Source of the DNA: Octopus vulgaris
Lineage: Eukaryota
Direction: 5' to 3'
DNA: 64,000 nucleotides
Assembly (NCBI GenBank): GCA_951406725.2
Contig: OX597814.1
Span: forward strand, 206,770,001-206,834,000
Part shown: piece after piece, positions 1 through 39,533 of the stretch
Layout of the letters: each line of letters begins with the position of its first letter
Numbering within the stretch: the stretch's first letter is position 1
The notes under the pieces: generated by a model
Told to the model about the DNA's origin: nothing
The model's input: the letters and a program-made list of their open reading frames with translations, nothing else
Databases searched by the model: none
Made by a program: the position numbers and the translations under genes

Positions 1-339
1 TGTCTGCTACGGCCTAGAAATTGGTTAAGGGACATTTAATAACTGTACAGAAATCTGATAAACCAGCAGTGGTACCATCACAGAGGTAACTCCATTTAGA
101 TATCTCAAATGATCTTCTCTCACTAACTCTTTTATCATCTTTTGGAATTAGATTTTGATGTGTATGGTGAATATGGATATGGGGTGAGTAGAAGAGTGGG
201 GTTCCACAAAATGCCACCCAAACAAGTTCAGTGGTAAATATTGGCAAGGGACAGGCTCTCCCAATGATAAAACATCATTTCCTGAAACCTGTTTGATGTC
301 ACATGGTGTCATGTGATGACAAAATGTCCTGGATTCAAA

Positions 340-775
340 GAGATAAGCTCAATATCTCGTGTGATCACTATTAGTGTTGATTACTACCCGGCATCTTCTG
401 CACATTGAATGCACCAAACGATTGATGAAAGCCATGGGGATAGCAGCTGACACTCTGTTAAAACCTGCAGTGAGTTGTCTCTGAGTTTTCAGTCTTGGAC
501 GGATGTCATTTAGCCTTCTTTAGGGTTTCATCCCACAGGTGCTCTATAGGGTTTGAGTCTGGACTGAAGCCAGTGTCTAGATGTTGATGTTGTTGGAGGA
601 AGCCTGTTGTCAACCTGGCAGTATGGTCACGGGCATTGTTATGTCAGAACACGTAATTCCAACAACAGGCAAAGTATGGCACAATGTGAGGTCTCCAAAT
701 TTGGTCAATATAGCAAGCAACAGTTACTCCATTTCCTCAGCCTTCACCAAAGTTTTGGAAGGCCACCAGTTCAGC
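340..775 (-). mobile_element. Degenerate Tc1-like transposase fragment in the last intron of PARP copy A
   Basis: Minus-strand frames contain DNNARDHTAR and SPDSNPIEHLWD, resembling the Tc1 DNA(P)xH and SPDLNPIE motifs. Confidence 0.7.
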
Positions 776-786
776 ATATATATATA

Positions 787-1434
787 TATCATCATCATCA
801 TCATCATCATCATCGTTTAACATCCACTTTCCAAGCTAGCATGGGTTGGACGGTCTGACTGAGGACTAATGAACAAGAGGCTGCATCAGGCTCACTCTGT
901 TGTGGAAAAGTTTCTATAGCTGGATGCCGTTCCTAATGCTAACCACTCCGAGTGTGTAGTGGGTGCTTTTACATGCCACCGGCACGAGGGCCAGTCAGGT
1001 GGTTCTGACAACAACCATGCTCAAAGGTATTTTTACATGCTACCTTCATTGGAGGTAGTCCGGTGGAACTGGCAATGACCATGCTCAAATGTTGTTTTTC
1101 ACGTGCCACCAGCGGAGGAGCCACTATATGGCCCTGGCAACGATGATGCTCGGTGTGCTTTTAATTTTCCACTGGTACAAGTGCCAATCACGCAGTAGTG
1201 TCATCGGCCACGTCAGCGATTTTGATTTCACTTGCCTCAACAGGTCTTTGCAAGCAAAGTTTATTGTCCAATGAATGAGTGGGGAGGGGGTATTCATAAG
1301 TGGGCTGCTTACACCCACTGGCATAGGCCATGGGCTGTGGTCTCACTTGGCTTGTTTGGTCTTCTGAATCACAGTATATCTCCAAAGGTCCTGGTCACTA
1401 GTCATTGCTTCAGTGAGCCTCAATGTTCAAAGGT

Positions 1435-1435
<1 letters not shown>
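787..1435 (-). mobile_element. RTE LINE 3' end with (GAT)n tail, specific to the copy A intron
   Basis: Matches the 3' UTR and ORF end of the RTE copies at 33300-33930 and 53463-53950. Confidence 0.85.
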
Positions 1436-1487
<52 letters not shown>

Positions 1488-1507
1488 TTTGTTTTTATCA
1501 TTCTTAG

Positions 1508-1770
1508 GCACATATGGTGAAGGTGTTTATTTTGCCAAAAGCATCCGATATTCTGCAGATGATACCTATTCTACTCCTGACCATCGCAGAATAAAGACAA
1601 TATACAAATGCAGTGTTCTTGTGGGAAGAGTGATTCAAGGACAACGTAGATTAAAAGTTTTACATGGTTCTTGCAATTCTGCGGTTGATGATATTCAAAG
1701 ACCCAATATTTATGTTACTTTTGATGACTCTCAAGCATATCCTAATTATTTGATTACATTCTCTAATTGA
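1508..1770 (+). CDS. PARP14: Terminal coding exon of PARP14/15-like mono-ADP-ribosyltransferase, copy A (upstream exons lie outside the window)
   Basis: Acceptor ttcttag at 1501-1507, phase 1. Translates GTYGEGVYFAKSIRYSADDTYSTPD...PNIYVTFDDSQAYPNYLITFSN*, matching the PARP14/15 catalytic C-terminus (YGxGxYFA, YS, QAYPxYLIxF). Symbol indicates family, not proven orthology. Confidence 0.9.
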
Positions 1771-1789
1771 AATTAAGACTTTTGTAACA

Positions 1790-2505
1790 CTTTGAGTTGA
1801 GATTTGTAATTCTAAAAGTATTCAAATGTTTAACACTAAAACTTCAATTTTATAACACTTAAAACTATTTGAATTTTTAAAACTAATGCTGTTCAAATTT
1901 GTAACTGTAAAATTATTCAGATTTGTAACAGGAAAATTATTCAGATTTGTAGCATTAAAACTATTCAAATATTTAACAGTAAAATTATTCAAATTTGTAA
2001 CTGTGAAACTATTCAAATTTGTAACAGTAAAATTATTCAAATTTGTAACAGTGAAACTATTCAAATTTTTAACAGTAAAATTATTCAATTTTGTAACAGT
2101 GAAACTATTCAAATTTGTAACAGTAAAATTATTCAATTTTGTAACAGTGAAACTATTCAAATTTGTAACAGTAAAATTATTCAATTTTGTAACAGTGAAA
2201 CTATTCAAATTTGTAACACTAAAATTATTCAAATTTGTAACAGTGAAACTATTCAAATTTGTAACAGTAAAATTATTCAATTTTGTAACAGTGAAACTAT
2301 TCAAATTTGTAACAGTAAAATTATTCAAATTTGTAACAGTGAAACTATTCAAATTTGTAACACTAAAATTATTCAATTTTGTAACAGTGAAACTATTCAA
2401 ATTTGTAACAGTAAAATTATTCAAATTTGTAACAGTGAAACTATTCAAATTTGTAACAGTAAAATTATTCAGATTTTTTACACTAAAACAATTGAATATA
2501 TTTTA
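1790..2505 (+). repeat. 24-bp minisatellite (48-bp higher-order dimer) just downstream of the copy A stop codon
   Basis: Alternating aaatttgtaacagtaaaattattc / aaatttgtaacagtgaaactattc, about 25 good units with degenerate edges. Confidence 0.95.
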
Positions 2506-2546
2506 ACATTTTCTTTTTTGTTACATTAGATGTAATTATTGCTTAA

Positions 2547-2552
2547 AATAAA
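2547..2552 (+). promoter_or_regulatory. Candidate polyadenylation signal of copy A (second candidate at 2682-2687)
   Basis: First AATAAA after the stop codon and minisatellite; also present in copy B. AT-rich context makes this weak. Confidence 0.3.
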
Positions 2553-3117
2553 ATGAAGGCTGCAGGTTCAAATCCAGTCAAAGTTTATTATTTTGTATTA
2601 TATTTTTTAAAAAAAAGTATAAACCGGTTTTGTGACTGGGAAGAAACTGTCCACTGATTTTGGAAATGTGTTTCTAAGAAGAATAAAATTCCTTTACACT
2701 TACCAAAACCCCATCCATATGATCAAGTAGAGCCCAACTGGTACATATTGAATGCCTGTTATCAGAGAAAATTGGTGGAAAACCTGTGGAGTATTCATAT
2801 TTAGCATTTTTGAGTGAAATCACCAGACAATGGCCAACGTCCTGGTGGTATAATACGGGATATTATTGGGATACACGACACTTTTGTCATTACTTTCACC
2901 ATCTTTCTTGGAATTCTCAAGTAATATCATGGAAAATGCAGGTTAATTCTCAAAGCATCATTTTGCAAATGAAGTACAGCTTCCATGTTGCAAAGTACAA
3001 TACACACACATATCCTCACCCTCTCAGGAGCAGTACATATGTAAGCTGAAATGATTGCTGTGCTAAATAGAGCTTACAATACAATAAGTATTCCCTATGA
3101 AATATTTAAAATACATA

Positions 3118-3461
3118 TATTATTATTACAAATTTGGGATCTTTACCAATAGATATGCACCTCCTGTTTCAGGATAACCTCATGGTATGGTATACGCAGA
3201 GAAAGATACAGCAAATATAATTATTAAAGCAATTAATGTAACTTATAAGAAAATTAAATAAATATAAATACTTGTTATAATTCTGTGGGGAATAATAACA
3301 GTTAAGTTATATTTATTTAACTAATTTTCTTGTAAGTTACATTAATTGCTTTAATAATTTTAATTGCTTTATCTTTCTCTGCATATACCATACCATGAGG
3401 TTATCCTGAAACAGGAGGTGCATATGTATTGGTAAAGATCCCAAATTTATAATAATAATAT
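3118..3461. repeat. Inverted repeat (~145-bp arms, ~45-bp spacer)
   Basis: 3118-3263 is the reverse complement of 3311-3461. Confidence 0.85.
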
Positions 3462-3574
3462 TATAAAATATACTTTTTACATTTCATAAGAAAAGTGTGA
3501 AATAGTAAATGTCCTGATAACCTGGAATACTTGTTTTTCCCTAATATTTTATATATTCATAATATATATACATA

Positions 3575-3792
3575 CCAGCCTCGCCTGGCACCTGTGCAGG
3601 TGGCACGTAAAAAGCACCCACTACACTCACGGAGTGGTTGGCGTTAGGAAGGGCATCCAGCTGTAGAAACATTGCCAGATAAGACTGGAGCCTGGTGCAG
3701 CCTTCTGGCTTCCCAGATCCCCGGTCGAACCGTCCAACCCATGCTAGCATGGAGAACAGACATTAAACGATGATGATGATGATGATGATGAT
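3575..3792 (+). mobile_element. RTE 3' tail fragment
   Basis: ggtggcacgtaaaaagcacccactacact...aaacgatgatgat motif. Confidence 0.85.
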
Positions 3793-3793
3793 A

Positions 3794-4070
3794 TATTAAT
3801 ACACATATGAGAGGGAATCCACTAAAGTGGACGCCCTTACGCTAACCACTAAAATTGTTCTCAAGAAAACTTAGCACACTATGAACGTAGCGAGCAGGAC
3901 AAATGAAAAATAACAAAAATATAGATCTATATAAATCTATATTTTTGTTAGTTTTCATTTGTCCTGCTCGCTTACATTCATAGTGTGCTAAGTTTTTCTT
4001 GAGAACAATTTTTAGTGGTTAGCGTAAGGGTATCCACTTTAGTGGATTCCCTCTCATATGTGTATTAATA
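3794..4070. repeat. Near-perfect palindrome (~133-bp arms, 8-nt centre)
   Basis: tattaatacacatatgagagggaatcc...aaaaatatagat / atctatattttt...ggattccctctcatatgtgtattaata. Confidence 0.9.
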
Positions 4071-4163
4071 ATATTTACTGAATCTCAGTTTTTTATGCGC
4101 TAAACCACTGGTGTTAAATTGGTGTTATTAAATTAATATACAATTTTTTCACCCTCATTTTGA

Positions 4164-4228
<65 letters not shown>

Positions 4229-4229
4229 G

Positions 4230-6140
4230 GAAAAATTACCCAAAAAAACAAAAGATGAAGACAGGTGGCGTAGACAAACTGATGCCTTAGTTTAACGCTC
4301 AGAAAGTGAAAAAGTCTTTAACGTTTTGAGCCTACGCTCTTCCACAGAAAGGAACACAAAAAGAAACAGGGAGAGAAAATAAATAAAGTGTAGTGGCTAG
4401 TGATCAATCATGGCGAATGCCAGACAGAGGGGTCACACAGTAAAGCTAGGAAGAAGGGGAGATAATAAAGTAGTGGTGATCCCAAAATGAAGGTGCACAC
4501 GAATGTGTATATGAGAGCATGTATGTGCGTGTGGAAGAGGCCTGGTGACCTTGACGTGTGCATGTGTAGGTGTGTTGATGATGGTGAGGGTACTGGGAAG
4601 TGGACAGTGCTAGTGTGTGCGTGGTGGTGTAATGTGATTTGTGGTTTAGGCTGAGGGTGGGGTATGTGGGATGTAAGTGGGTGTAAGGGGTGGGATGGGA
4701 TGTATAGGGAAGGTGAGGTTGGACTGGGTAGGTTGGGGTTACGAGGGAGGGGTGACGATGAAACGAGAATGTGGATAGGAGGGAAGAGAAGTAGGAGTCA
4801 GAGAAAGAGAGAGGTGGGTTGGAGAAAATAGGTGTGAGAGGAAGAGAGGAGAGTTAGATGAAGAGGAGAGGAGTTGAGTCCATGTGGTGCAAAGGAGCGA
4901 AAAGAGATTAATCTCTGTTCACGGAGAAGACGGAAGTCTGGATGGCCCCTATGCAAGGACAATCCGAAAACAGACAGGTGTTGCAAAGAGTGACCTGTAG
5001 AGCAGTAATGGCACGAGACCGAGGTGTCATTGCAGAGTCGGATGTGTCAGAGGTGTTCTGCGAACCGGTCATCCAAGCGTTGTCCCGTTTGTCCGATGTA
5101 CAGAGAAGGGAAGATAGAGCAGGAGAAGCAATAGATGACGTTGCTAGAAATGCAGGTGAAAGAGTCAGTGATATGATAGGGTCAATGATGGGTGCCGGTA
5201 AGGAGGGTGGTGTTGATGTAAGGGCAAGTGTGGCAGCGTGGGCGGGAGCAGGAGAACGAGCCGGGTTTGGAGTTTGGGTTAGGGAAGAAGCTGTGGGCCA
5301 AGAGGTCTCGTAGGTTGTGGGCTCATTTGAAGGAGAGGAAGAGTCAGTTAGAGAAGATGTGCGAAGTAGAGGGGTCGGAATGGAGTTAGCGGAAGGCTTG
5401 GAGAATGGTGCGTTGAAGAGATAGGTGAGGGGAAACGGGAGACGGTTGGTTGGGTGCAGGGGGAAAGAGCAGATGTACAGTCCACGGAACGTGCTCTGGC
5501 AAGGGCGGTGTGGATAGTAGTGAGGGGACAGCCACGTAGAATGAAGTGGTTAGCCATGAGTTGAGACTGAGTCTCAAAGTCATGGTTGTCACTGCAAAGC
5601 CTGCGTAGATGGAGAAATTGGGAATAGAGGAGGGAAAGCTTAGTGTGTTTCGGGTGGGAGGAGGAGAAGTTGAGGTATGAGTGTGTATCTGTGTGTTTGT
5701 AGTGCATGGAGTTAATGAGAGGGGAGTGATGTATGGAGGGCATGATGGAAAGATTTGACAAAAGAGAGGAAGGAGTCTAGATGTTCGCAGGAGTGTGAGG
5801 TCGCACCGATGCAGTCGTCAATATACCGACCGCATAGTTCGGGAGTGGAACCAGTGAAACTTGAGAATATTTGGGCCTCAATGTAGCCATAGTTGGGACC
5901 CGTTCTCGTTCCCATGGCCACTCCTAAGAAATGCTGGTAAAAATCACCCGCAAACGAGAAGTTGAGTGAGAGGACAAGTATGGCCAGACGAACGAGTGTG
6001 GATGTGTCAGGTTGGGGTTAGGTCGAAGGTCAAGGAAATGTTGGAGTGCACGCAGCCCCTCGTGGTGAGGGATCACTGTGTAAAGGCTCTGGATGTCGAA
6101 AGTGAAGAGAAATTTAGAGGGGCTAGGAGGAAGAAAACTG
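4230..6140 (-). mobile_element. Penelope-like retroelement relic (RT + GIY-YIG, 3' hammerhead-like motif)
   Basis: MAMGTRTGPNY...RYIDDCIG, YLNFSSSHPKHTK, and IYCF...LYIGQTGQRLDDRFAEH on the minus strand; frameshifted. Confidence 0.85.
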
Positions 6141-6879
6141 CTTATTAATTAGGTATGTAATAGCCACTGTAAGAAAGCTATTATTAAAGGCTTGACCGTC
6201 TTGAAATTTTTTATAAATTCATGTTCCAAGAAATTTCCTGTAATTTTTGTTTCTGAAGTTTATTCAGTATTTGAACTATGAGATCTTCACAAATTTAAAT
6301 TTCATTTACTGCAGAGTAGATTAAATAAACTATCAATTCGTTGCAGCCAAAATTTTCCGTTTTCATTTGAAACAGTTTCTTACACTCTGTTTTCATTAAT
6401 GGTAATTTCATATTTATTCCTTTCAAGTTGTTGCAAAATCCACTTTATCCGATGTACATAGTGTAAAAAAATTATTTATTGAATGAATTAATAGTATTAC
6501 ACAAAGTAGGTATATAACTTTGATCTGTATTTTTGATAACATGAAAAAAATTTTTAATATACCAGTATAATTTACAACAAAAATAATTAAGAAGTTGTTT
6601 TGTTGGTATGGCTCTATGGAATGCTATAAAGTCTTACGATAATAACTACTTCTAGCACACTAAACGTATAAATTACTAAAAGAAATATCTATAAGGGAAG
6701 AGAGATTTTTTTTATAAATTGAAGTTTTCAGGAAAATTTGCAGTAAATATTTTGTATAAGACCCATTTGTACCTCGGTGTGAAATACTATTTTTCCACAG
6801 GATTTTCCAAGTGTATTTAATGTATCCGACCTCCAAACCCACTGCAAAACAACCAAGAGGAACTCCCATTCCTAGACGT

Positions 6880-7770
6880 ACTAGTTTTTAAAAATACATA
6901 AAAAATAGAAAGGGACATATTTTACAAAAATACAGACATTAAACAATACCTATTATTTAGCTTGTGCCACCCAAGACATATTAAAACAAACATTACCTTC
7001 AACCCTGCAGGATAGATTTGCACCATAGTGATGGAAAAAATACCAAAGAACTAAGACTGCAAGAGCTTAAAAATGTACTCATGCACAGACATTACCCAAT
7101 TCAGCTCATAGGTGATGCGATTAAATGTGCAAAATTGATTGACATAAAGACATTAAGAAAAGTCGCACATCTACTCTAAAAATACTAACCTATATACCCA
7201 TACACAACCCCAGAAACAACGAAGCATTTAAAATCTCCCAATACTCCATAAGGGCTCCAAACTGAAGTAAATTCCGATGATGCATAAGATCATTAAAAGC
7301 AATGAACAATCAAAGACATAAAAGAAAATCCTCACAAATCATACATTATTCTCAAGAACAACAAACACAGGAGTAAAAAAATGCAGAACATCTCTCAATC
7401 TTTAGGAAGGATGAGAATTCCATTTTAAACAAGGGAAAAATTCAAAATTAAATCCAATTTCTCTTGCGCCCCCAAAAACCTTATTTATGTCATTGGATGC
7501 TTGAGCTGCCATAAAAAACTATATAGGTTCCACAGGAATGTCTCTTAGACGTAGATGTACAGTCCACAAACAACAAATCTCTTCCCCACAATATCGCCAG
7601 ATACATCTCCGTGAACCCATTGACATGTGTGCAGAACAACTGCAGCTACAATTCTAAATCTTCCCATTATATCAATGGGCTATTTGGACCTCAACACAAT
7701 TGTGACTAAATAAAGAGGGATCATTTTACAAAAAAATATAAGCGAGAACTGAATATAAATCCATATTGAA
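6880..7770 (+). mobile_element. Penelope-like relic, RT C-terminus and GIY-YIG
   Basis: NLIYVIGC and YIGSTGMSLRRRCTVHKQQI at ~7478-7580; homologous to the 10967-12020 element. Confidence 0.75.
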
Positions 7771-8089
7771 AATTATACAATTGCAACTAAATAAAAAGAG
7801 GCCTCGTTTTTCGAGAAAATATGAGCCAGAACTAAATAAAAATTACAAATTTACCTACCCTTTGCTGAAAATACCTTGGTTACATAAAAAACAAAATTTC
7901 TTCTTTCGTATTGCACCTAACACTCAAAATTTGAAAAGCTACAGCGAAACCTGTTGTTTTATTAAGGGAAAAATTTTGTTTTGTATATTCTAAAATATTT
8001 TTACCATAGTCTCATAAAACAAATCTGTTTTTCGTCTTATTTCTTTCCTTGTATATTCAACCATGTGTAATCACTAACCATACTTTCAC

Positions 8090-8690
8090 ATATATATAAC
8101 CCCCTCCTCTCTCCTCTTACACTTTTTTCACTCCCACCCACCTCTCCTCTCCTCTCTTGCTCTGACACCTACTTCCTCTCTTTACTCATACTCACCTCCT
8201 CCCTTCATTGTTACCTACCCCTACACATTCCAACACTATCGTCCCTATACATCCCATCTCATCCCCACCCCATCCCACACATTCCACTCCGACATGCCCC
8301 ACACCACACCTACATACTCCATCCTTGCTTCCCCATACCCCAACACCACACCACATCACACCATTCCCCACACACTAGCACTGACCAATTCTCAACACCT
8401 GCACCATCATCCACACACCTACACAGGCACACGTCAAGGTCACCAGCCCTCTTCCACACGCACATACACGCTCTCGCATACACACGTATGCGTACCTTCG
8501 TTTTGGGATCACCACTACTTTATTATCCCCCCTTCTTCCTAGCTCTACTATCTGACCACCCCTGTGCAGCATTTGCCATGATTGATCGCTAGCCACTACA
8601 CCTTATTTTCTCTCTCTGTTTATTTCTGTGTTCTTTTCTGTCGAAGAGCATAGGCTCGAAACGTAAAAGACTTTCTCACTTTCCGAGTTG
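8090..8690 (+). mobile_element. 3' end of the same Penelope-like family as 4230-6140
   Basis: Diverged reverse complement of ~4300-4870, including the hammerhead-like motif. Confidence 0.75.
8633..8670 (+). ncRNA. Minimal hammerhead-ribozyme-like motif (CUGUCGA core variant)
   Basis: CTTTT-CTGTCGA-A-GAGC ATAG GCTC-GAA-ACGT-A-AAAG at the 3' end of a Penelope-like fragment. Confidence 0.55.
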
Positions 8691-9470
8691 TGACTGTTAT
8701 GCTTTTGTCGGCGTTTCGGCGTCTGTCTAGATGTTTTCTGAAGGAGGAGGCTCTCGTGTTCAGATGTTCTTTGATGCAAATGTGTAACAGTCTTGTTGTG
8801 CTACCCACATAGAACTTGTTGCATTGTATTCTATACACAACATTAAACCATTGGCATAAATCTGTGTCATGGATGGGGCAGTTAGCTAGTGTGCATTGAT
8901 TGCTGTCCATTGCTCGTTCCTTTGCTAGGTGTCTTCTCAGAGAGGGGCCGGAGTGGGCTCTAACCCATCTCTTCTTATGGCTCTTCGGATGGCTGTAGTT
9001 ATCTTCTTTCTAAAATGGGGTACTTTAAGGAAGCATGTGTTGCTGGGTTTTCTGTGTGTTTAGCGTGTTTGTTGTCTTGAGTACTTAAGCTGATTTACAA
9101 TGAATATAGGGTACCCGTTAGTTTTCAATATCTCTTGGAAGCGTGTGGTGTGGGTCGCCTTGTTCTCTGTCCTGCTGCACTTGCTCTGGATGCGTGTAAG
9201 TTCATTTCTGGTGTATCTTATTTTAGTACCAAGTGGAAGGGCTGAATTGTAGTGAACAAACATATCTCTACTGGCTGCTTTCCTGTAGAACTAGGTATGG
9301 ATCTTTCCTTCCGTTATTTTCAGTCGGGGGTTGAGCAGCGATAGGGATCCAGTGTTGTTGGCATATTCTATACTGAACCGTATATTCATTGTTGAACGTC
9401 ATGAATATTCTGTTCGCTTCTTCACAGGAGGATGTGAGTATGAAGATGTAATCTACATACCTGGTGTTTA
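8690..9470 (-). mobile_element. Penelope-like relic (second family)
   Basis: NVVYRIQCNKFYVGSTTRLLHICIKEH (GIY-YIG) and FVHYNSALP...LKTNGYP (RT thumb). Confidence 0.75.
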
Positions 9471-9849
9471 TAAAATTTCTTTGGTCTAGAGTTTGGTGCC
9501 GTTAGCAACTGGTGTTTGCATGGTATTATTGTAAGGTCATTTGGAGTTGCAGTTTTGAAACCTATGTGGAAGACTGTTACTAAAAGTTTAAAAAATTATA
9601 TCTGTTGTATGTGGTTGTTGTTTTTTGTGGAGAAATTGTGTCTTTTCCTTTTTCCCTTCAGTGTTTTTACTTCTTTCTAAAGGATATTCAGCTGTGGTTT
9701 ATATTTTCTGATGAGCATACTTTCCTTATTTAAACAGAATTGGGTTGAAGTGTTTTCGGAACATTGATAGAGAGGGAAGATTTGGTATTTCGGGTTTATG
9801 TCTGCGGGCATTGGTCTAGGTGTTGATCTATGTAATCTCCACCACACCT

Positions 9850-10380
9850 GAGAACACTGATTAAGTTCTTCGATGCTCAGGTAAAGTCATATTTTATGGT
9901 AAAAGTTTGACCTGACTTAAATTTACATGTGGAGCCCTCTAAGAGGAAGATGCAAGTCCCACAATTAGGGCGGTTGCCCTTTTGGGCTTGTGGGGTTGTA
10001 CTGGTGGGTAATTTGGCACTGGTAAATAACGTTTTTAGAGAATGCGGTTACCTCTTGCTTTTAATAATTGTATGAGTTTCCAGTGCCGTTTTCTCTCGCA
10101 GGTCTTTCATTAGGAGGGCTGTGTTTTGGTGGATGATGTATGATTCCCTATTCCTCGGATTGTGTGTTTAGACGTGAGATAAAATTTAAAGTATGTCATG
10201 GTGTTTTCTTGTTTTCCGTAACTCTTGGATGTCTATTATTTTCGTATCTTCTATTCCACTTTTAATAAGACTGGCCGGGTATTTTCTATTTAGTACTGTG
10301 TTTTTAAGTTCTTGGAGTCGCTTTTCTCGGGTTTCGGGATTTGATGCAATCATGCAAATTCTTCTTGCTAAGTTGAGCAG
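9850..10380 (-). mobile_element. Penelope-like fragment (RT-endonuclease linker)
   Basis: Minus strand encodes NLARRIC...HNPRN...RPNCGTC, homologous to 11275-11985. Confidence 0.65.
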
Positions 10381-10959
10381 TATATATATACATACATGCG
10401 AGAGCCCTACAAGAGCACCTACATCGCTAAAAATAAAGTCAAAAGTATTTCTGTGTCACAGAATAGTCACGAATTTATTACAGGCCTGGTAGTAAAATAT
10501 TCCAAGGACAATTCTGTGACACAAAAGTTTTCTGATCTCTATTTTTAGCGATGTAGGTGCTTATATAGAGCCGTCGTATATATATACATATATATGGGTA
10601 AAATATGAAAAATCAACGAAAATGCACATTGCAAATAAAAAAGGATATTTATGACAGGTAACGACAAATATATACATTTAGATTGACTGCGGTAGTAATA
10701 CGAGTCATAAAAGTCATTATTATGAGATGATTATAAGATGATAATAAACTAAGAGAAAAAAAGGAACATGGTTTACGCAAAGCTATTCATCATTTGAAAA
10801 ACACCGGCTAATACACGGTGTCAGGTCTAATAGTTCCCGAGAAAAAAGATTATTTGTAAGGGGGGTAAGTAGTTCTGGATTATTTGTAAGGGAGGTAAGT
10901 AGTTCTGGATTTAGAGATGTGAGTGGTGTAGGAAGTGTATAGGGGTTAGTGGTTTCAAT

Positions 10960-14303: not shown

Positions 14304-14360
<57 letters not shown>

Positions 14361-27077: not shown

Positions 27078-27150
27078 GCCTCCATAGCTCAGTGGTTAGA
27101 GCACTGGTCTTGTAAACCAGGGGTCGTGAGTTCGATCTTCACTGGGGGCT
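27078..27150 (+). tRNA. tRNA-Thr: tRNA-Thr(TGT)
   Basis: 73-nt cloverleaf GCCTCCA TA GCTC AGTGGTTA GAGC A CTGGT CT TGT AA ACCAG GGGTC GTGAG TTCGATC TTCAC TGGGGGC T. All stems pair, A and B boxes are intact, and TTTT follows at 27162-27165. Confidence 0.9.
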
Positions 27151-27165
27151 TCTGTTACACATTTT

Positions 27166-27506: not shown

Positions 27507-27791
27507 ATATATAACAGTTGAATAAAATTAAAACATGGTCTAGTTTTCATGTTTTTTTATTATGGTATTTTAACATTAAAAATATTTTGTCAAGTTCAAT
27601 TAGTGCTTTTTTACGTTCGTAGTAATCATCAGATTTCAAATGTATTTAACTGACAGTTGAGTTCTTGACAACTGTAGTACCTCTTAGAGTGCTCCCACAA
27701 GCTGAATTTTTGGAATACCGTTTTGATCAATCTGCATGCATCATGGTTTGCCAGGTATGCCAATGTTTTGTAATTTGTTTATATTCATATA

Positions 27792-28180
27792 CTCTTTTAC
27801 TTTTTTCAGTCATTTGACTGTGGCCATGCAGGAGCACCGCCTTTAGTCGAGCAAATCGACCCCAGGACTTATTCTTTGTAAGCCTAGTACTTATTCTATC
27901 TGTCATTTTTGTCAAACCACTAAATTACGGGGACGTAAACACATCAGCATCAGTTTTCAAGCGATGTCGGGGGGGAACAAACAAAGACACACAAACATAT
28001 ACACACACATACATACGACAGGCTTCTTCCAGTTTCCATCTACCAAATCCACTCACAAGGCTTTGGTTGGCCCGAGTCTATAGTAGAAGACACTTGCCCA
28101 AGATGCCACGCAGTGGGACTGAACCGGGAACCATGTGGTTGGTAAGCAAGCTACTTACCACACAGCCACTCCTACGCCTC
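27792..28180 (-). mobile_element. tRNA-derived SINE, full length
   Basis: Same family; head at ~28180, tail at ~27792. Confidence 0.88.
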
Positions 28181-29079
28181 TTAGAGATATTTTTTAATCC
28201 ATATGATTAACTGGTTAACAACAAATTATTACTGTTATTTCCATTCAGAACGAGAGTGAAAGTTTTAAACCATTTTTCTTTTAGCTTTCTTCCAACCTCA
28301 TGTGTCATGTAGTTTGTAGAAAGGAAAAATTACAAACATGTTCTGACCACATGTTTCTGTGTTCACTCAATAGAATTTGGCAAGCATCGGTGTTCCAGAT
28401 TTGTTGTCTGTGAACTCCTGAGCATTCCGATAATGCATTCCTGGTCTCACCTATTCGGGCATTTAATACAGTAGATCAAATTTCTGCTTTTGCATTTCAT
28501 AGGCTATCATAGCCACATTGGAGGAGCCTTCAGGGTCAGATTGTTTGACCTATGTTGAATGTTTGCTAGACAGTATCGGTCTTCCTGGCATACATAATAA
28601 CGTTAATAAAACTATCAATAATACCTGTGAAACCCTTAGCAAAGGTAAGTGCCTTCATCAACAACTCTTAAGAAATGGATAGATAAAAGTATACAATATT
28701 GAATGTGTAAACCTAGGCCTGCCTCTTCCCCAGAGAGAAATAAAATTCTTAAGGACTATGCTAAAATTGGCGCATTTAATAATCGTAAAGAAGTTTTCTC
28801 TGTGTCCATTTCAAGCGCTACCTATTGGAAAATTGGTTCATCCCATTTGCTGGTTAACCTTTTGGAGCCTTGTAAGGGTTTTTAAAAATCCTCTAGGCCA
28901 GGGTAGATAACCTGTTCACATTAACGTTTTTATATGTTCGGCCTTAAATTTTGATTTCTGAGCATTACCTCGTCTGCGTAGGAGGTCTTCATTTTTTTGT
29001 CTTTCTATAGAGTCTGACGAGCTGTCCATAAAGTTGTGCCTTTCATGGATACATATGACCAGAATTTAACTTTTTGTTT

Positions 29080-29975
29080 TTCAGTTGAAAGATTGAAGTT
29101 CTCTTTCAAACAGAGTCAATGTTTTACAGTGAAAAACTTCACATATGCTTCAGAAAACCTAAAATATATATTAACTTGTTCAGGTTGTCAAAAGCAATAC
29201 ATAGGCCAAACCAAAAACAGTTTACATCAAAGGATGGCTCTACTTAGGTCTCACATCAGAATTCGGAAATACAGAAAAATCGTATTCAGCGAACAAATCG
29301 ACATTTGCACCACTAACAAACAACCAAGCTTCAGAATTTTTTCCCTCAATAAATTCGGGGACGATGCAACTTGTAATCAGCGCATTAGCAAAGAGTCATA
29401 TTTTTTCACAAAATGTAAACCCCTTTTTAATGCGTCCACCACAAATGACACAATTACAAGGGCCTTAGAATAATACCCACGCAAGTATTAAAAACGATAT
29501 ATTCTGAAGTCACTACCCATGAATTTATTCAGAACAATTCCAATAACTACTATTACAACCACAACTGGTCACTTTTGGGTCACTTGACCATTCAAAAGGA
29601 TCCTACCAACATCCTACTACTGTCATACCACTCCCACATTTTGATTATTAATATTATTCTTTTTCTTCTTTTTGCTGCCCCCTTTCTCAGCTACTACTGC
29701 TGCTTAAACAATCAAAACCAAGAACTCATATCAAATATTCTTTTAGGACTGCTACTACCTGTAACCAAGCCCTCACAAGAGTAAAAAAGAGAGACATGCA
29801 GACAGAAAGAAAAAGAAGGAAAATGTCTCTTGCATTTGAAACTAGAGAAATACTTTTTAAAACATTTCATTTAATTTTTCCACAATTCAATTGTTTTTCA
29901 TGCTTTACTGTAAGTTGAAAAAGTCGAAAAGGCTGAAACCAGTACTAAAATGTTCTTCATGATAAAATTATTTTA
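29080..29975 (+). mobile_element. Penelope-like 3' fragment (GIY-YIG + degenerate hammerhead)
   Basis: NLKYILTCSGCQKQYIGQTKNSLHQRMALLRSHI. The 3' motif at 29911-29975 is repeated at 26896-26960. Confidence 0.72.
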
Positions 29976-30141
29976 GCATCTGTAGTTATGCTGCTGTATC
30001 AATCATTATCTATCTACCTATCTATCTATCAATCTGTGTTAAGGCTATAAGTTTATAACCCAAGTGAAACCAGGTCCTTTTGCTTGTATATGTATGTATT
30101 GTAATTTGCAACATGGAAGCTGTACTGGATTTGCAAAATGA

Positions 30142-33100
30142 CGTTTACTTGATTTCAGTACCTCGGCGAAAAAATACGAATTGCAGAAGATGCTCAGATA
30201 AGAAGTTTTGTCTTTTCAACCTCTTACTCTTCTATTTCTGCACAAATCATAAACCCCTTGTTAGTTCTTTTCATTATTCTGCCTATTTCATTACCATGTA
30301 GACATGTAAATATAGTTTCAATAGTTTCGTCTTCCCTGTTTTTGCCTTTAAGATAACCTTAGTTCAAGCAATTCTTTAACCGCAACATATTCATTCATTC
30401 ATCTATGAAAGTCTATCACACAGTCACTTATTTCTCTAATTTTGTCTTAGACTGGCTCTCAGATTCTTCAATTCTATTTTACTATTATCAACATTTGCTG
30501 TCTTGTTTAATTAACTATGCCACACAAATCCCAAAAGAATATTTTTTCTCCCTCGTGTTCTGAACATTTCTACCCACCCTCTCTCTCTGTCTCTCGGCTT
30601 CACTCTGTCTGTGTGTGTGTGTCTCTCTCTCTCTCTTTCAAGTACCACTCGCCTCGCCAAGACTTCCTACTTCCTCCACCACCATACATAAACTAGCGCA
30701 CGTACTCGGATTCCCCTACTCGATTTTCAATACCTCCACCGAAAGAATATGTATGCAGGAGGTGCTCTCATCCATGTTTGCTAGTTCGCAGTGCACCCAC
30801 CCTTCCACCCCATCAACCTGTACCAGAAGTCCCTATTTTTTGTCATCCTTTGTTTGTCTCCCATGAACACTTTTAAAGGCTTTACGCCATCCCCACCCCT
30901 ACTATATAAGGTAGTGATCATATAGTGCAAAAATATGAAAGGGTAGTGTATGCAGATTGAACTCAAGGCTATTGTTTGCTTATGAATTCTGCCAAATGCG
31001 AGCTCTTATTTCAGGTACATGACGCTACTGTCCCCCGTCCCAGGGTCTCTAGGGCCCATACCTCCCACACCCTCAGGATTGACACTCTCAATGTTGGCAC
31101 ACTGAAAGGTAGGTCTGATGAGATTGCTGAGATGCTTGAACGGAGATGTGTCGATATGTGCTGCATCCAAGAAGTAAGGTGGAGAGGAGGTTCTGCTAGG
31201 TACCTCACAGGCAAAGAACACAGGTACAAGATTTTCTGGGTAGGGAACACTGATGGGATCAGGGGCATGGGTATACTTTTTGCAGGAAAATGGTTAGATA
31301 AGGTAACTGAGGTAGTCAGAGGATGCGACAGAATACTTAAGATTAGATTAATGCTTCATCATGGGTTAGTAACCATCATCTCGGCCTTTACCCCTCAGCC
31401 AGGGCTACCCGATGGACAGAAAGACCGTGTTGACGAATGACAGGGACCTTCTCTTTGTGGCTGGTGACTTCAATGGACATGTTGGACATCATTCCGGAGG
31501 CTTCCATGGCATATGTGGAGGCTACGGTTTTGGCTCCTGCAACGAGGAGGGAACCAGGCTGCTGTAGTTCTATGATGCAAATGATCTTATGGTTTGCAAT
31601 ACTAACTTTAGAAAACCTGCCAGTCACCTAGTCACCTACTGTTCTGGCAGACACACTAGCCAAATTGATATCCTCACCAGGAAACAAGTAAGATGGCTAC
31701 TTATAAATGTCAAAATCTTCCCAGGCAAAGAATGTACCCCACAACATAGACTGGTAGTTAATGACTTCAGGATCAGGGCTAAGTGGATGCCCAGAAGACC
31801 AGTATGGAGAAGAAGGGTCTGGAAGCTTAAAGATCATGCAAATGGACAGAGATTTAGAGACATATTACTCAAAGCCTTTGTTAAAATAGAAGGGGATGTA
31901 GCTTCACACGTAGAAGACAACTGGAGGTTTCTACGGGACAAACTGCTGAGGGCCACTGACCAGATCTGTGGATGGTACAAAGTCCCATTCTGACCCAAGG
32001 TAACGTGGTGGTGAAACAATATTGTAGACAGGGCCATTAAGGAAAAGAAACAGGCTTGGAAGGACTGGAAGAATAGTGGGAGCAGGGAATCGTATCAGAC
32101 TGCCAGAAGGGAAACTAGGAGACAGGTTTATTTAGCCAGAGGGGAAGCAGATAAGAAAAAAATTTGCCAATGTTCTGTGCCATGAGGACCAAAGACTTGA
32201 GGTATTTTGTGTTGCAAGACAGTGTGTGAGAGAGAATCGTGATGTTGTAGGAGAGAAATGTGTTCGCATGAATGGTGGTTCTCTTGCACTAAATGAAGCT
32301 GCAAAGAGAGAGGTTTGGAAACGCCACTATGAAAGGTTGCTGAATAAAGAGAATGAATGGGAGAAAGAGGGTCTGCCGAATGTCGACCCAACAGAGGGAC
32401 CAGCTATACGAATTGACAATACCTAGGTAGATAAAGCAATTAAGAGTATGAAGACAGGGAAAGCCCCAGACCCATCAGGAATCACTGCAGAGATGCGTAA
32501 AATATCTGGCAGTGTCGGCTATAGTCTAGTCACCTGTATAAACAAGGATTAGAATCAAAGGGCCTTAGAGTCAACCTAGCTAAAACCAAAGTCCTAATAA
32601 GTAGGAAGGCTCACAAACCACAAATCCCTTCAGGTAGATTGCTCTGCTTGATCTGTAGAAAAGGCGTATGTAGAAACTCTATAAGATGTACCCACTGTAA
32701 GCTATGGACACATAAGTAGTGCAGTAATATCAAAGGAAGGATAACTGGGAAGATAGTTTTTGTATGTGGCAGATGCTCAGGAGCAATAAAAACTGAAAAT
32801 GTGCAGAGAACAGCTTCCGCCACATTCGAGGGAGAAAAACTAGAAGTAGTTGATAGCTTCCATTACCTAGGTGACCAAGTCAGTAGTGGGGGAGGGTGCA
32901 CTGAAAGTGTAGCTGCTAGAATAAGAATAGCTTGGGCAAATTCAGAGAGCTCTGCTGGTGACAAAGGGCCTCTCACTTAGAGTAAAAGGCAGACTGTATG
33001 ATGCATGCGTACGAACAGCCAGGCTACATGGCAGTGAAACAGGAGTCGTGACTGCTGAGGACATGTGTAAGCTCGCAAGGAATGAAGCCAGTATGCTCCG

Positions 33101-33930
33101 ATGGATGTGTAATGGCAGTGTGCATACTCGACTGAGTGTAAGTACCCTGAGAGCAAAGTTGGATCTAAGAAGCATCAGATGTGGTGTACAAGAGAGATGT
33201 TTGCGCTGGTATGGTTATGTGGCGAGAATGGATGAAGATAGTTTTGTGAAAAAGTGCCACACCCTAGCGGTTGAGGGAACCTGTGGAAGAGGTAGACCCA
33301 GGAAGACCTGGGATGAGCTGGTGAAGCACGACCTTTGAACTTTAGGTCTCACCTAGGCAATGACTAGCAACTGAGACTTTTGGAAATATGCTGTGCTTGA
33401 GAAGACCCGGCAAACCAAATAAGTCCATAACCTTGTGGCCTATGCCAGGGGTGTAACCGGCCCACTTATGCGTACCTTTCCTGCATTGGACACTAAACTC
33501 TGCTTGCGAAGACCTTGTTGAGACAAGTGAAATCGAAATCAAATTCGATGACGGGCATCTGTGCTAGTGGAGCACCATCCGAACATGATCATTGCCAGAG
33601 TAGCTAACTGGCTTCCATGCCGGTGGCACATAAAAAGCACCATTCGAGCATGATCATTGCCAGTACCACTGGACTGACTCCTGTGCAGGTGGCATGTAAA
33701 AAACACCATTTGAGCGTGGCTGTTGCCAGTACCGCCTGACTGGCTCTCATGCCGGTGGTACGTAAAAAGCACCCACTATACTTTTGGAGTGGTTGGCATT
33801 AGGAAGGGCATCCGGCTGTAGAAATTCTGCCAGATCAAGATTGGAACCTGGTGAAGCCATCTGGTTCACCAGTCGTTAGTCAAATTGTCCAACCCATGCT
33901 AGCATGGAAAATGGACGTTAACCGATGATC
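30142..33930 (+). mobile_element. RTE LINE with 5' UTR and APE endonuclease, RT core deleted; inserted into duplication arm B
   Basis: TLNVGTLKGR...CCIQEVRW (APE). At ~32540 the ORF jumps from LVT to KQGLESKGLRVN. The flanks rejoin as gcaaaatga|tgctttgag, the uninterrupted sequence in arm A. Confidence 0.9.
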
Positions 33931-34383
33931 ATGCTTTGAGAATTAACCTGCATTTTCCATGATATTACTTGAGAATTCCAAGAAAGATGGTGAAAGTAAC
34001 GGCAACAGTGTCGTGTATCCCAAATAATATCCCGTATTATACCACCAGGAGGTTGGCCATGGTCTGGTGATTTCACTCCAAAATGCTAAGTATGAATACT
34101 CCACAGGTTTTCCACCAATTTTCTCTGATAACAGGCATTCAATATGTACCAGTTGGGTTCTACTTGATCATATGGATGGGGTTTTGGTAAGTGTAAAGGA
34201 ATTTTATTCTTCTTAGAATCAAATTTCCAAAATCAGTGGACAGTTTCTTCCCAGTCACAAAACCGGTTTATACTTATTTTTAAAAAATATAATACAAAAT
34301 AATAAACTTTGACTGGATTTGAACCTGCAGCCTTCATTTTATTTTAAGCAATAATTACATCTAATGTAACAAAAAGAAAATGT

Positions 34384-35210
34384 TAAAATATATTCAATTG
34401 TTTTAGTGTCAAAAATCTGAATAATTTTACTGTTACAAATTTGAATAGTTTCACTGTTACAAATTTGAATAATTTTACTGTTACAAATTTGAATAGTTTC
34501 ACTGTTACAAATTTGAATAATTTTAGTGTTACAAATTTGAATAGTTTCACTGTTACAAAATTGAATAATTTTACTGTTACAAATTTGAATAGTTTCACTG
34601 TTACAAATTTGAATAATTTTAGTGTTACAAATTTGAATAGTTTCACTGTTACAAAATTGAATAATTTTACTGTTACAAATTTGAATAGTTTCACTGTTAC
34701 AAATTTGAATAATTTTACTGTTACAAATTTGAATAGTTTCACTGTTACAAAATTGAATAATTTTAGTGTTACAAATTTGAATAGTTTCACTGTTACAAAT
34801 TTGAATAATTTTACTGTTACAAATTTGAATAGTTTCACTGTTACAAAATTGAATAATTTTACTGTTACAAATTTGAATAGTTTCACTGTGACAAATTTGA
34901 ATAATTTTACTGTTACAAATTTGAATAGTTTCACTGTTACAAATTTGAATAATTTTACTGTTAAAAATTTGAATAGTTTCACAGTTACAAATTTGAATAA
35001 TTTTAGTGTTACAAATTTGAATAGTGGTAGTGATACAAGTTTTAATAGTTTTAATGCTACAAATCTGAATAATTTTCCTGTTACAAATCTGAATAATTTT
35101 ACAGTTACAAATTTGAACAGCATTAGTTTTAAAAATTCAAATAGTTTTAAGTGTTACAAAATTTGAAGTTTTAGTGTTAAACATTTGAATACTTTTAGAA
35201 TTACAAATCT
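34384..35210 (-). repeat. 24-bp minisatellite downstream of the copy B stop codon
   Basis: Same unit in reverse complement, about 30 units. Confidence 0.95.
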
Positions 35211-35214: not shown

Positions 35215-35491
35215 TCAAAGTATTACTAAAGCCTTAGAGAATGTAATCAAATAATTAGGATATGCTTGAGAGTCATCAAAAGTAACATAAATATCGGGTA
35301 TTTGAATATCATCAACAGCAGAATTGTAAGGATCCTGTAAAACTTTTAATCCCTGGGTCCTTGTATCATTCTTCCCACAAGAACACTGCATTTGTATATT
35401 GTCTTTATTCTGCGATGGTCAGGAGTAGAATAGGTATCATCTGCAGAATATCGGATCTTTTTGGAAAAATAAACACCTTCACCACGTGTGC
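35215..35491 (-). pseudogene. PARP14: Terminal exon of PARP14/15-like copy B, with a 1-nt frameshift (possible pseudogene or assembly error)
   Basis: Reverse complement of the copy A exon, acceptor ttcttag at 35492-35498. Reads GTRGEGVYFSKKIRYSADDTY...; GGACCCAGGGATTAAAA is 1 nt shorter than copy A, giving TAA at 35348-35346. The ancestral frame continues LKVLQDPYNSAVDDIQIPDIYVTFDDSQAYPNYLITFSKALVIL*. Confidence 0.8.
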
Positions 35492-36244: not shown

Positions 36245-36478
36245 GCTTGAACCGATCGTGACCGATGCCGGACCCCCCGGCCCCTGTGCAGGTGGCACGT
36301 AAAAGCACCCACTCCACTCGCGGAGTGGTTGGCGTTAGGAAGGGCATCCAGCCGTAGTAACTCTGCCAGATCAGACTGGAGCCTGGAGCAGCCCCTGGCT
36401 TCCCAGACCCCGGTCAAACCGTCCAATCCGTGCTAGCGCGGAAAACGGACGTTAAACGATGATGATGATGATGATGAT
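36245..36478 (+). mobile_element. RTE 3' tail fragment
   Basis: Same tail with (GAT)n. Confidence 0.85.
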
Positions 36479-36699
36479 ATATATATATATATAAACACAT
36501 CACACAGTAAAAGATTATTTGTTTCATGATATTGAGATTATATAGATTTTATCACAATTCAAGGTAATTTGACATCAGGAAGATGTCACTGACCCACAAC
36601 ACCACTCTCTTTTGAAAACACAAGGATTGCATTTAGGGTTCAAATTCGCTCACTTTTCATGAAAACGAATGCATCTTTATGAAAAGTATGATGCAAAGT

Positions 36700-37790
36700 C
36701 AAAACATTGACTCATTGGGTATAAAAGGCACCAAAATTCTCCAGCCTGTCCATCATTTCCCGAATGTAGGAAGCATAACAAGACTGACATGAAATCAGAG
36801 GGAGCAAACCATCGGATGTCTCCATACTGGTCAACGTCCATAGGTCATTGCTAATGACTTGAACTGCAGTATTTGGACAACTGAATGGCTGAGGGAATGA
36901 GATAGTGCCACAAACAACATGGATAATCATCCACACAGTGGCCGACCAAAGGTTACAACAACACGTCATGACTGTCATCAGCACCGACAGCACTGATTCT
37001 TTAGGACAATGGAATCAGCTAGGCAGAGCATAGGAACTCACCACAGACCCATTTGTGCTGAGATCTTTCAATTTGACTCACCAAAGTCCAGCTAGGATCC
37101 ACATCCGCACAGATCATTATTGATGGGTACATCTGCAGTGAGCTGCAAAAACGTCAGAGCGGGCAACATGAGTAGTGGAAGAGTGTAGTCTTGTCTAACA
37201 AAAGTCGATATTGCATTTCTCTGGAAGACAGCAGAGCTGGCATTTCTGGCATTTAGAGGAGAAGGGGTGAATGTCATGCCAATGGCTGTATGGTGGAGAG
37301 ATACTCATAGGGAAGACAGAGCATCATGGCAAGGGGCAAGATTGCACTCAACCATAAACCTGAACTGGTGGTCTTCCGAAACATTGGTGAAGGCTGAGGA
37401 AATGGAGTAAATGCTGCTTGCTATATTGACCAAATTTGGAGGCCTCACATTGTGCCATACTTTGCCTGTTGTTGGAATTACGTGTTCTGACATAACAATG
37501 CCCGTGACCATACTGCCAGGTTGACAACAGGCTTCCTCCAACAACATCAACATCTAGACACTGGCTTCAGTCCAGACTCAAACCCTATAGAGCACCTGTG
37601 GGATGAAACCCTAAAGAAGGCTAAATGACACCCGTCCAAGACCGAAAACTCAGAGACAACTCACTGCAAGTTTTAACAGAGTGTCAGCTGCTATCCCCAT
37701 GGCTTTCATCAATCGTTTGGTGCATTCAATGTGCAGAAGATGCCTGCCAGTAATCAACAATAATAGTGGTCACACGAGATATTGAGCTTA
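36700..37790 (+). mobile_element. Degenerate Tc1-like element in the last intron of PARP copy B
   Basis: Same SPDSNPIEHLWD motif at ~37569, plus a more N-terminal SGRPKVTT motif at ~36937. Confidence 0.7.
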
Positions 37791-38632
37791 TCTCTTTGAA
37801 TCCAGGACATTTTGTCATCACATGACACCATGTGACATCAAACAGGTTTCAGGAAATGATGTTTTATCATTGGGAGAGCCTGTCCCTTGCAAATATTTAC
37901 CACTGAACTTGTTTGGGTGGCATTTTGTGGAACCCCACTCTTCTACTCACCCCATATCCATATTCACCATACACATCAAAATCTAATTCCAAAAGATGAT
38001 AAAAGAGTTAGTGAGAGAAGATCATTTGAGATATCTAAATGGAGTGACCTCTGCTGGTTTATCAGATTTCTGTACAGTTATTAAATGTCCCTTAACCAAT
38101 TTCTAGGCCGTAGCAGACATTGAATATTTCAATGAGAGTTAACAACACTGTATTGATTATCTCAGTATATCTATAATTGACAAACTCAGAATGGTGATTG
38201 CTAGGCCTGGTGTTCGCTTGTTGATATTTCTGTCCAGTCCTGCAGACTCTCCACTAAACTTTTTCCTTCTTCCTATAACATTATCCCTCTGGAATTCCAC
38301 CCCTTCTCTTATCTTTCCTGCAATATTTTCATTTACAAAGGTTCAAGAGGAACATTAATGGATGGGGACACACCCTTCCTCCCAATCCAAATAAAAGTGT
38401 TGGTTCCACAATAATAAAATACACCTGGTTTACTCTAGAGCAGAAGATGTTAGGAAGGGGACCTGGCAGTAGAAACGATGCCAAACATGGAATGTGTAAG
38501 CAACATGGCATCCTCTCTGTGTGAGAAAGGATTCTAAACAGCAATCAATGTGGAGAGTGACTGTCCAGCTCAGGACAATAGGAAGGGTGGGTAGAGGACA
38601 CTACTATTGCCACTTTGAGAATATGTACTTAC

Positions 38633-38810
38633 CATTTTTACCACAAGAGCTATGGTTGAAACCATATTTATTTATTCTATCAACAGATCCTACAGTAGTA
38701 CCATGCCAAAGGCCATCAACTTCATTTGTAATGCTTGGATTTTCTGCCTCAAATTGTTTTTTCAATGATTGGTATCTCTGGTATAATGCTCTATTTTGAA
38801 TTCTCTCAAT
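38633..38810 (-). CDS. PARP14: PARP14/15-like copy B, penultimate exon (catalytic His)
   Basis: ctacag acceptor, gtaagt donor, 178 nt, phase 0 to 1. IERIQNRALYQRYQSLKKQFEAENPSITNEVDGLWHGTTVGSVDRINKYGFNHSSCGKN(G) carries the IERIQN and HGT..GFN motifs and is in phase with the last exon. Confidence 0.9.
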
Positions 38811-38988
38811 CTGTAGAAAGGAAAATACATTTATGAAAAGACAATCAAATCACTTCTTTGACAAGGAAATAAAGTTTGTGGTAAAAAACCCCAACCCTAT
38901 CTGCTTTTTTCTTCTTTTGTATTTGATACCAATTTTGATTCAACTGTAAATTTTGGTAAGGCACAATAGTTTAGCTGCAAAATGGTGT

Positions 38989-39210
38989 TGCAATCTTGCC
39001 CCTTGTCATGATGCTCTGTCTTCCCCATGAGTATCTCTCCACCATACAGCCATTGGCATGACATTCACCCCTTCTCCTCCAAATGCCAGCTCTGCTGTCT
39101 TCCAGAGAAATGCAATATCGACTTTTGTTAGACAAGACTACACTACTCATGTTGCCAGCTCTGACGTTTTTCAGCTCACTGCAGATGTACCCATCAATAA
39201 TGATCTGTGC
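38989..39210 (-). repeat. Tc1-derived fragment, inverted copy of 37108-37346
   Basis: Reverse-complement match with a few small indels. Confidence 0.85.
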
Positions 39211-39399
39211 AAGAAGTTAAAGCAGAGGTATTTTTCTTGAGCAAAGATTTTTTGTGAATATCCAAAGTTGCATGGAACCATCCCAAAATAGGTTCATACA
39301 ATGAGATTTAAGTCTTTTATACAAAGAAAATGTCTCTTAACATTTCTTTTAACAATAAATCATTAAATATTGTTTATAAACAGAAATAAAAATACAAAC

Positions 39400-39533
39400 T
39401 TTGATTATATGATAGGAAGGCAAATTCCGACGGAAAGTGGCCTGGATGTCATCATATTCTGATCCATTTGTGACTCGAACAATTTTAATTAATTCCTTGT
39501 CTCCCATTGATGACCATGTATCTGGGATTGGTT
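39400..39533 (-). CDS. PARP14: PARP14/15-like copy B, exon at the start of the catalytic domain
   Basis: ctttag acceptor, gtttgt donor, 134 nt, phase 1 to 0. (E)PIPDTWSSMGDKELIKIVRVTNGSEYDDIQATFRRNLPSYHIIK resembles the PARP14 IPxxW..EY..V...F segment and splices in frame to IERIQN. Confidence 0.85.

Follow-up and report, generated by a model that had tools for sequence, protein, structure and literature searches.

The DNA analysed here, referred to as the window, is a stretch of 64,000 nucleotides (nt) of the Octopus vulgaris genome (assembly GCA_951406725.2, contig OX597814.1, positions 206,770,001 to 206,834,000 of the forward strand), and all coordinates are counted from its first base. 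It holds the 3' ends of two facing gene copies, A on the forward and B on the reverse strand, whose exons encode parts of the catalytic domain of PARP14/15-like mono-ADP-ribosyltransferases, as a first-pass annotation of the letters had proposed. Copy B corresponds to an already annotated O. vulgaris gene, CAI9716700.1, with which it shares its exons and an early stop, and copy A appears to be unannotated in this species.

Two facing copies on inverted arms

The features belonging to the two copies are the following.

1..774, forward strand: shared part of the last intron of copy A, reaching the first base of the window (16 mismatches in 760, one 14-nt gap)
775..1439, no strand: dispersed repeat in the copy A intron, lacking at the matching place in copy B and 71-74% alike to other repeats of the window
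1508..1770, forward strand: last exon of copy A, open, with Tyr at 1528-1530, Ile at 1708-1710 and the stop at 1770
1802..2488, forward strand: 24/48-nt minisatellite behind the stop of copy A
2494..2961, forward strand: 3' flank of copy A, end of the shared arm (11 of 463 positions differ)
33928..34395, reverse strand: 3' flank of copy B, end of the shared arm
34413..35208, reverse strand: 24/48-nt minisatellite behind the last exon of copy B
35215..35491, reverse strand: last exon of copy B, with Tyr at 35471-35469, a frameshift near 35356, a stop at 35348-35346 and Ile at 35292-35290 out of frame
37360..38119, reverse strand: shared part of the last intron of copy B
38633..38810, reverse strand: exon of copy B with the catalytic His at 38705-38703
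39400..39533, reverse strand: exon of copy B at the start of the transferase domain; the joint 38810/39400 occurs in all four sequencing runs compared, paralogues included
56004..56057, reverse strand: 54-nt linker exon of copy B, outside the coordinates of the first-pass annotation and located by tblastn with CAI9716700.1

Comparison of the window with itself confirmed that the copies lie on an inverted duplication and resolved it into two reverse-oriented matching blocks, the first pairing 1-774 with 38119-37360, and the second pairing approximately 1440-2961 with approximately 35577-33928 and including the last exon, the minisatellite and the flank. The non-coding divergence, put at about 2% by hand count, was reproduced as 27 differences in 1223 positions (2.2%; 16/760 in the intron part and 11/463 in the flank). 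Duplication of the last intron, which had been claimed as a whole, holds for the shared part; the remainder (775-1439 in copy A and about 37359-35578 in copy B) consists of private inserts of 0.7 kb and about 1.8 kb, respectively, and the arms are hence not colinear throughout. Homology between the arms ends at 2961 on the side of copy A and does not resume within 2956-4160.

The last exon departs from this picture, as 17 of its 252 compared sites differ between the copies, three times the divergence of the flanks (Fisher p=0.0007), with 12 of 84 residues affected. The changes comprise 14.5 non-synonymous and 2.5 synonymous ones, giving proportions of 0.074 (pN) and 0.045 (pS) beside the non-coding value of 0.022, and an 87-nt run is identical between the copies. 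At the stop, a 10-nt indel (1765-1775 versus 35235-35215) separates the two, with copy A ending as most paralogues do. The longer tail is common to copy B and to both the A-type and the B-type genes of O. sinensis, which suggests conversion of the 3' end from B to A in that species. The minisatellites also contain open frames of 216-265 aa, which were rejected as artefacts of the repeat.

Within the window, copy A is represented by its last exon, the upstream exons, including the one with the catalytic His, preceding the first base; the O. sinensis A-type genes carry this His. The exon of copy A has a good acceptor, shares 81 of 85 residues with O. sinensis XP_029633854 and matches the PARP catalytic domain (PF00644) at 33.8 bits against a cut-off of 26.7. 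Its best match among solved structures is PARP14, with the Ile of copy A aligned to the Leu of PARP14. A 14-nt A-type intron insertion found in runs X1 and X7 (contig to 38182) hints that the arm extends beyond the first base of the window but could be a B allele, a weak observation that is not relied on here.

As predicted, the exons of copy B (39533-39400, 38810-38633 and 35491 onward) are bounded by AG/GT and join in frame, and its last exon agrees with CAI9716700.1 in 48 of 48 residues. His and Tyr were likewise found in frame. The Ile had also been read in frame; in the assembly, the loss of one base near 35356 puts its codon in another frame, the copy stops at 35348-35346, where the annotation of CAI9716700.1 also ends, and the complete triad of a mono-transferase is not found in one reading frame of copy B as assembled. 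The earlier description of an intact triad is thus wrong for this assembly and probably right for the species. Contigs from four runs of four studies were aligned to 35215-39600 at 85% likeness. At 35354-35356, one additional base explains 263 of the 305 depth units of X1, all 203 of X6 and 205 of the 240 of X7, and each of the four listed X5 contigs that cover the site has it. One of these four differs from copy B at only 3 letters; one X1 contig carries the same insertion as this near-B contig. The extra base thus occurs in B-like contigs of two studies apart from the reference assembly. Since the O. sinensis orthologue is also in frame across the site, the frameshift is likely either an error of the assembly consensus or a private null allele, and a fixed truncation of copy B is unlikely. 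An O. vulgaris assembly, which we infer to be the source of this window, is described in a passage of PMC10700109 as built from Nanopore reads with Illumina polishing, at a heterozygosity of 1.22%.

Exon bins reach depths of about 200-850 in X1, X6 and X7, and most intron bins stay below 35, intron bins without coverage being left out of account. Together with the exon joint, this depth speaks for a family that is transcribed, though not yet for transcription of either copy by itself. The linker exon (56057-56004) lies 16.5 kb from the next exon and is present in the O. sinensis isoform X4, not in X2; it is therefore likely a skipped cassette. The introns flanking the His exon contain inverted copies, 91% alike, of a 240-nt element (37107-37346 and 38989-39210), which could pair in the pre-mRNA. 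Contigs of X1 and X7 skip 38992-39208, which makes the second copy an insertion that some relatives or alleles lack.

Enzyme class and the octopus family

The assignment to the PARP14/15-like mono-transferases is borne out by the best solved matches, which are to PARP14 (E 8e-14, 8e-11), and by the presence of macrodomains in the full copy B protein. The His exon of copy B alone scores 20.3 bits against PF00644, which is under the cut-off; its best solved relatives, like those of the copy A exon, are human PARP14 and PARP15. CAI9716700.1 comprises an RRM (RRM_PARP14_3, 43.5 bits against a cut-off of 24), three macrodomain stretches and a PARP domain (49 bits), its macrodomain exons lying outside the window and being taken from the annotation. 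A tblastn search with 29 and 9 octopus proteins revealed no other PARP or macrodomain exon in the window beyond the five known exon places.

The catalytic triad reads His-Tyr-Ile in place of His-Tyr-Glu (Tyr and Ile being found in copy A, and His and Tyr in frame in copy B), and Glu occupies the third position in none of the 117 homologues that match the motif pattern, a count that includes isoforms and leaves non-matching proteins aside. Loss of this Glu marks mono-transferases or inactive members, according to part of PMC2964712, and the acceptor-loop Leu of PARP15 is treated as the homologue of Glu in a section of PMC12572374. In PARP14, macrodomain 1 is described as the sole hydrolase, with Asn/Gly in loop 1 and a hydrophobic-aromatic pair in loop 2 (PMC10221186, in excerpt). 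Macrodomain 1 of copy B has the corresponding motifs (Asn/Gly in loop 1 and Val-Tyr in loop 2), a likeness at the level of motif only; macrodomain 3 is without them, and loop 2 of macrodomain 2 was unmatched by the pattern used.

In vertebrate PARP14, a WWE domain stands ahead of the transferase domain. Neither WWE nor KH domains were matched in any of the six octopus proteins scanned, and copy B has a short linker only at this place. In some octopus paralogues, an additional segment ahead of the transferase domain resembles a WWE domain by eye, with no Pfam match in P0012. Two gene models (P0056 and P0039) are without the last exon.

Copy B thus resembles human PARP14 (ARTD8) and the metazoan macro-PARPs in its RRM, three tandem macrodomains and C-terminal transferase domain, and human PARP14 in particular as the best solved match, in the non-Glu third triad residue and in having hydrolase motifs in macrodomain 1 only. 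It differs from PARP14 in the Ile that replaces Leu and in the missing WWE and KH matches; furthermore, the octopus paralogues contain 2 to 6 macrodomain stretches and form a clade of their own, and are not one-to-one orthologues. The direct succession of macrodomain and transferase domain recalls mammalian PARP15, which arose by partial duplication of PARP14. However, PARP15 is mammal-specific in the account given in part of PMC10221186, and its rows group with vertebrate PARP14 in our tree. PARP15 proper was rejected for the octopus genes, which occupy their own branch (100/100) and are not nested in vertebrate PARP14; the 'PARP15-like' labels of octopus entries rest on similarity only.

That the copies belong to an expanding PARP cluster in an invertebrate, as the first-pass annotation had supposed, agrees with the paralogue searches and with a single octopus clade. 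The first protein search returned 29 matches, each of them a PARP14/15-like protein from Octopus. Counted as lower bounds, because the protein searches were clustered at 90%, and with isoforms merged, as a matter of judgement, by name and identical catalytic domain, the family has 10 entries besides copy A in O. vulgaris (in two accession blocks, CAI9714734-86 and CAI9716700-61), 14-16 PARP14-like loci after isoform collapse in O. sinensis, 4 entries in O. bimaculoides and one protein in Argonauta. Where a contig is recorded for an entry, it is nearly always the one of 200-226 Mb. Five long proteins were scanned for macrodomains and contained between 2 and 6 stretches. A tree of 61 catalytic domains, excluding isoforms, near-duplicates and the Argonauta match and representing copy A by its last exon alone, placed all 26 octopus rows on a single branch (100/100), inside which the branches are short; separate duplicates of their own are seen in Gigantopelta, Mytilus, Mercenaria and Sinanodonta.

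Within this branch, copy B is sister to O. sinensis XP_036364571 (100/96), its closest relative, which is in frame where copy B as assembled is broken, and copy A groups with its closest relatives, O. sinensis XP_029633854 and XP_029633960 (85/96). As the O. sinensis partners of A and B are different genes, the pair predates the split of O. vulgaris and O. sinensis and is not specific to O. vulgaris. The description of the copies as recently duplicated therefore stands with respect to the flanks and has to be qualified with respect to the genes, both types being already separate in O. sinensis, where they have neighbouring accession numbers. In the last exon, nine sites hold an A state versus a B state in both species, two sites unite the window copies against both O. 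sinensis genes and lie inside the 87-nt identical run, and six sites fit neither pattern (private), two of these changes being private to copy A.

Origin of the pair and competing explanations

A mosaic signal runs through the family. A test of the pairwise homoplasy index (PHI) type on 25 protein rows gave p=0.0005, and none of 30 recombination-free simulations fell below 0.05. Nearest neighbours shift by exon; the His exon of one O. sinensis gene is 93% alike to the A type, and its last exon is 98% alike to that of another gene. Among 21 other paralogues, both states occur at six of the nine A/B sites, and at the remaining three one state is unique. Tests of the per-exon trees reject each other's topology, a result given little weight because short alignments readily produce it. 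To judge from these sequence patterns, gene conversion would be the likeliest source of the mosaic, with selection possible.

On balance, the window is best read as the 3' ends of two facing paralogues of an octopus-specific PARP14-like family, likely mono-ADP-ribosyltransferases that probably exchange tracts by conversion and likely serve innate defence, a reading in which we place good though not full confidence. The pair may have been made by a segmental inverted duplication shortly before the O. vulgaris-O. sinensis split or, alternatively, by an older duplication kept alike by conversion. Conversion between A, B and other cluster members would have placed different residues before the third triad residue while leaving flanks about 2% apart; of the nine fixed A/B differences, six are found ahead of this residue and the other three beside the Tyr. 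Both regions may set target choice. The transferase is expected to move one ADP-ribose from NAD+ to its targets, with macrodomain 1 removing the mark and macrodomains 2-3 binding it, as in PARP14, so that an intact copy B would combine the writing, reading and erasure of single ADP-ribose marks. The frameshift in copy B would be a consensus error or private null allele, and the role of the family would be in innate defence.

The possibility that the arms represent one locus assembled twice from two haplotypes is regarded as highly improbable. The flank difference is within twofold of the heterozygosity reported in the consulted part of PMC10700109, and copy A has no annotation; however, the arms stand in opposite orientation 31 kb apart, contain the private inserts described above, differ in 12 residues of one exon and correspond to separate annotated O. 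sinensis genes. Copy A could also be a 3' partial duplicate consisting of the transferase exons alone, or a decaying fragment, which is possible and perhaps the most serious of the alternatives, albeit still on the unlikely side. No O. vulgaris protein with its exon was found in the protein searches, an O. sinensis catalytic-only model of 187 aa is identical to the A type in the last exon, and copy A has two private changes among the six odd sites. On the other hand, the reading frame of its exon is uninterrupted and includes Tyr and Ile, the acceptor is good, and O. sinensis also has an A-type gene of 1358 aa with six macrodomain stretches. A partial copy A is compatible with the rest of the preferred explanation.

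Copy B might instead be truly transferase-dead, owing to a common frameshift or to an Arg found in the B-type genes of both species at a position occupied by Tyr or Phe in 101 of 131 matched homologues, and act as a reader and eraser of ADP-ribose like vertebrate PARP9. The frameshift is present both in the assembly and in CAI9716700.1, about 43 depth units in X1 and 34 in X7 fall outside the listed insertions and could come from a frameshifted allele, and macrodomain 1 keeps the residues by which hydrolases are recognized in the portion of PMC10221186 consulted. This is nevertheless judged improbable, because the O. sinensis orthologue is in frame, the B-like contigs of two studies carry the extra base with no listed contig shown without it, and His, Tyr and Ile are all kept; the Arg may lower activity. 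The excess divergence of the last exon could further reflect positive selection on new mutations and not conversion, which appears rather unlikely as the main cause. The excess of pN over pS, the three A/B sites with a state seen in no other paralogue and the strong selection on mammalian PARP14/15 noted in part of PMC4038475 are in its favour. Against these stand the count of only 2.5 synonymous changes, which makes pN/pS alone not meaningful, the reuse of states of other paralogues at six of nine sites and the family-wide mosaic signal. Conversion and selection may both be acting.

Besides the Arg, the unexplained depth and the lack of an O. vulgaris protein for copy A, several further points weigh against two facing, tract-exchanging transferase genes. 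The PHI-type signal is weak within O. vulgaris (p=0.04), conversion was tested on proteins only, and many of the gene models are automatic. The lost base in copy B is not within a plain homopolymer. All runs consist of contigs, the RNA status of which is guessed; their depth peaks on the three exons of copy B, yet contigs at 85% likeness mix paralogues, and the exact joint 35491/38633 is absent from the listing, the listed forms having 10-11 letters between.

Genomic surroundings and relation to known PARP14 clusters

The spacer between the arms (2962..33927, no strand) consists of repeats and mobile-element relics, with no PARP or macrodomain exon found. Thirty other open frames were compared with Pfam, of which eight matched (reverse transcriptase, endonuclease, GIY-YIG, transposase and a weak zinc knuckle) and 22 did not. 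Copies of a LINE family with reverse transcriptase and endonuclease matches, 70-88% alike and in both orientations, are located at 31073-33776, 40164-42572, 47453-50681 and 53624-55255, and a Tc1/mariner-type transposase relic at 59786-60604. Relics bearing GIY-YIG occur at 10967-12060 (match at 10967-11371) and 29018-29473 (weak match), which we take to be Penelope-type elements. The long intron of copy B includes a 146-nt tandem array (51551-52803; 8.6 copies, 99% identity). Just outside arm A are a hairpin-like inverted repeat (3117-3461; 154-nt arms, 93%, separated by 37 nt) and an almost perfect palindrome about 280 nt long (3794-4070), possibly the ends of mobile elements. Two near-identical frames (17004-17336 and 17515-17898, 511 nt apart) represent a local tandem duplication without a Pfam match.

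Clusters of PARP14-like genes have been described in other animals. Passages of PMC10221186 note PARP14 in molluscs, and neighbouring PARP14-like copies number at least four in lancelet and six in sponge (PMC4245714 and PMC13224862, in part), with at least eight in microbat and extra copies in fish and birds (PMC4038475, in part). The excerpts of these three papers show the same kind of lineage-specific neighbouring duplicates, some of them broken, and the octopus family differs in its larger count (10 plus copy A, and 14-16 in O. sinensis, as lower bounds); exon-level mosaicism is unmentioned in the excerpts. The lack of adaptive immunity had been offered as the setting for such an expansion. 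As PARP14 is also duplicated in fish, birds and bats (PMC4038475, same excerpt), this lack is not needed as an explanation. The literature search, which left supplementary tables and most subscription papers outside its scope, returned no report of a PARP14 expansion in octopus, cephalopods, molluscs or bivalves. The main text of a cuttlefish genome paper (PMC13218726) names no PARP, and the consulted part of PMC9712504 lists other expanded families, its apparent PARP matches being rejected as an author name.

By analogy with vertebrate relatives, the octopus family may have an immune function. A PARP14-like protein has been reported in octopus skin mucus (PMC11431876, in part), and PARP14 is raised in Vibrio-infected oysters under low salinity (PMC9162580, in part). 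A more far-reaching view, put forward tentatively, is that octopuses possess an array of their own on the largest chromosome, with 11-16 or more macro-PARPs and rapid turnover. Conversion would, on this view, shuffle segments of the catalytic loop and the number of macrodomains (2 to 6) between copies to yield a variable innate-immune repertoire of writers, readers and erasers of ADP-ribose, A and B keeping their nine fixed residue differences in two species with the surrounding DNA only 2% apart, and B segregating for a null allele.

Tandem expansion of PARP14 is already known in kind; of interest here are the size of the octopus family, the mosaic signal within it and the truncation of CAI9716700.1, an annotated protein that is likely cut short in error by a frameshift specific to the reference. 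Duplication of PARP14 is read as a mark of host-virus conflict, and an octopus array of this size that exchanges pieces would lengthen the short list of cephalopod expansions by one candidate immune family, as well as give a natural series of transferase variants for the study of target choice.

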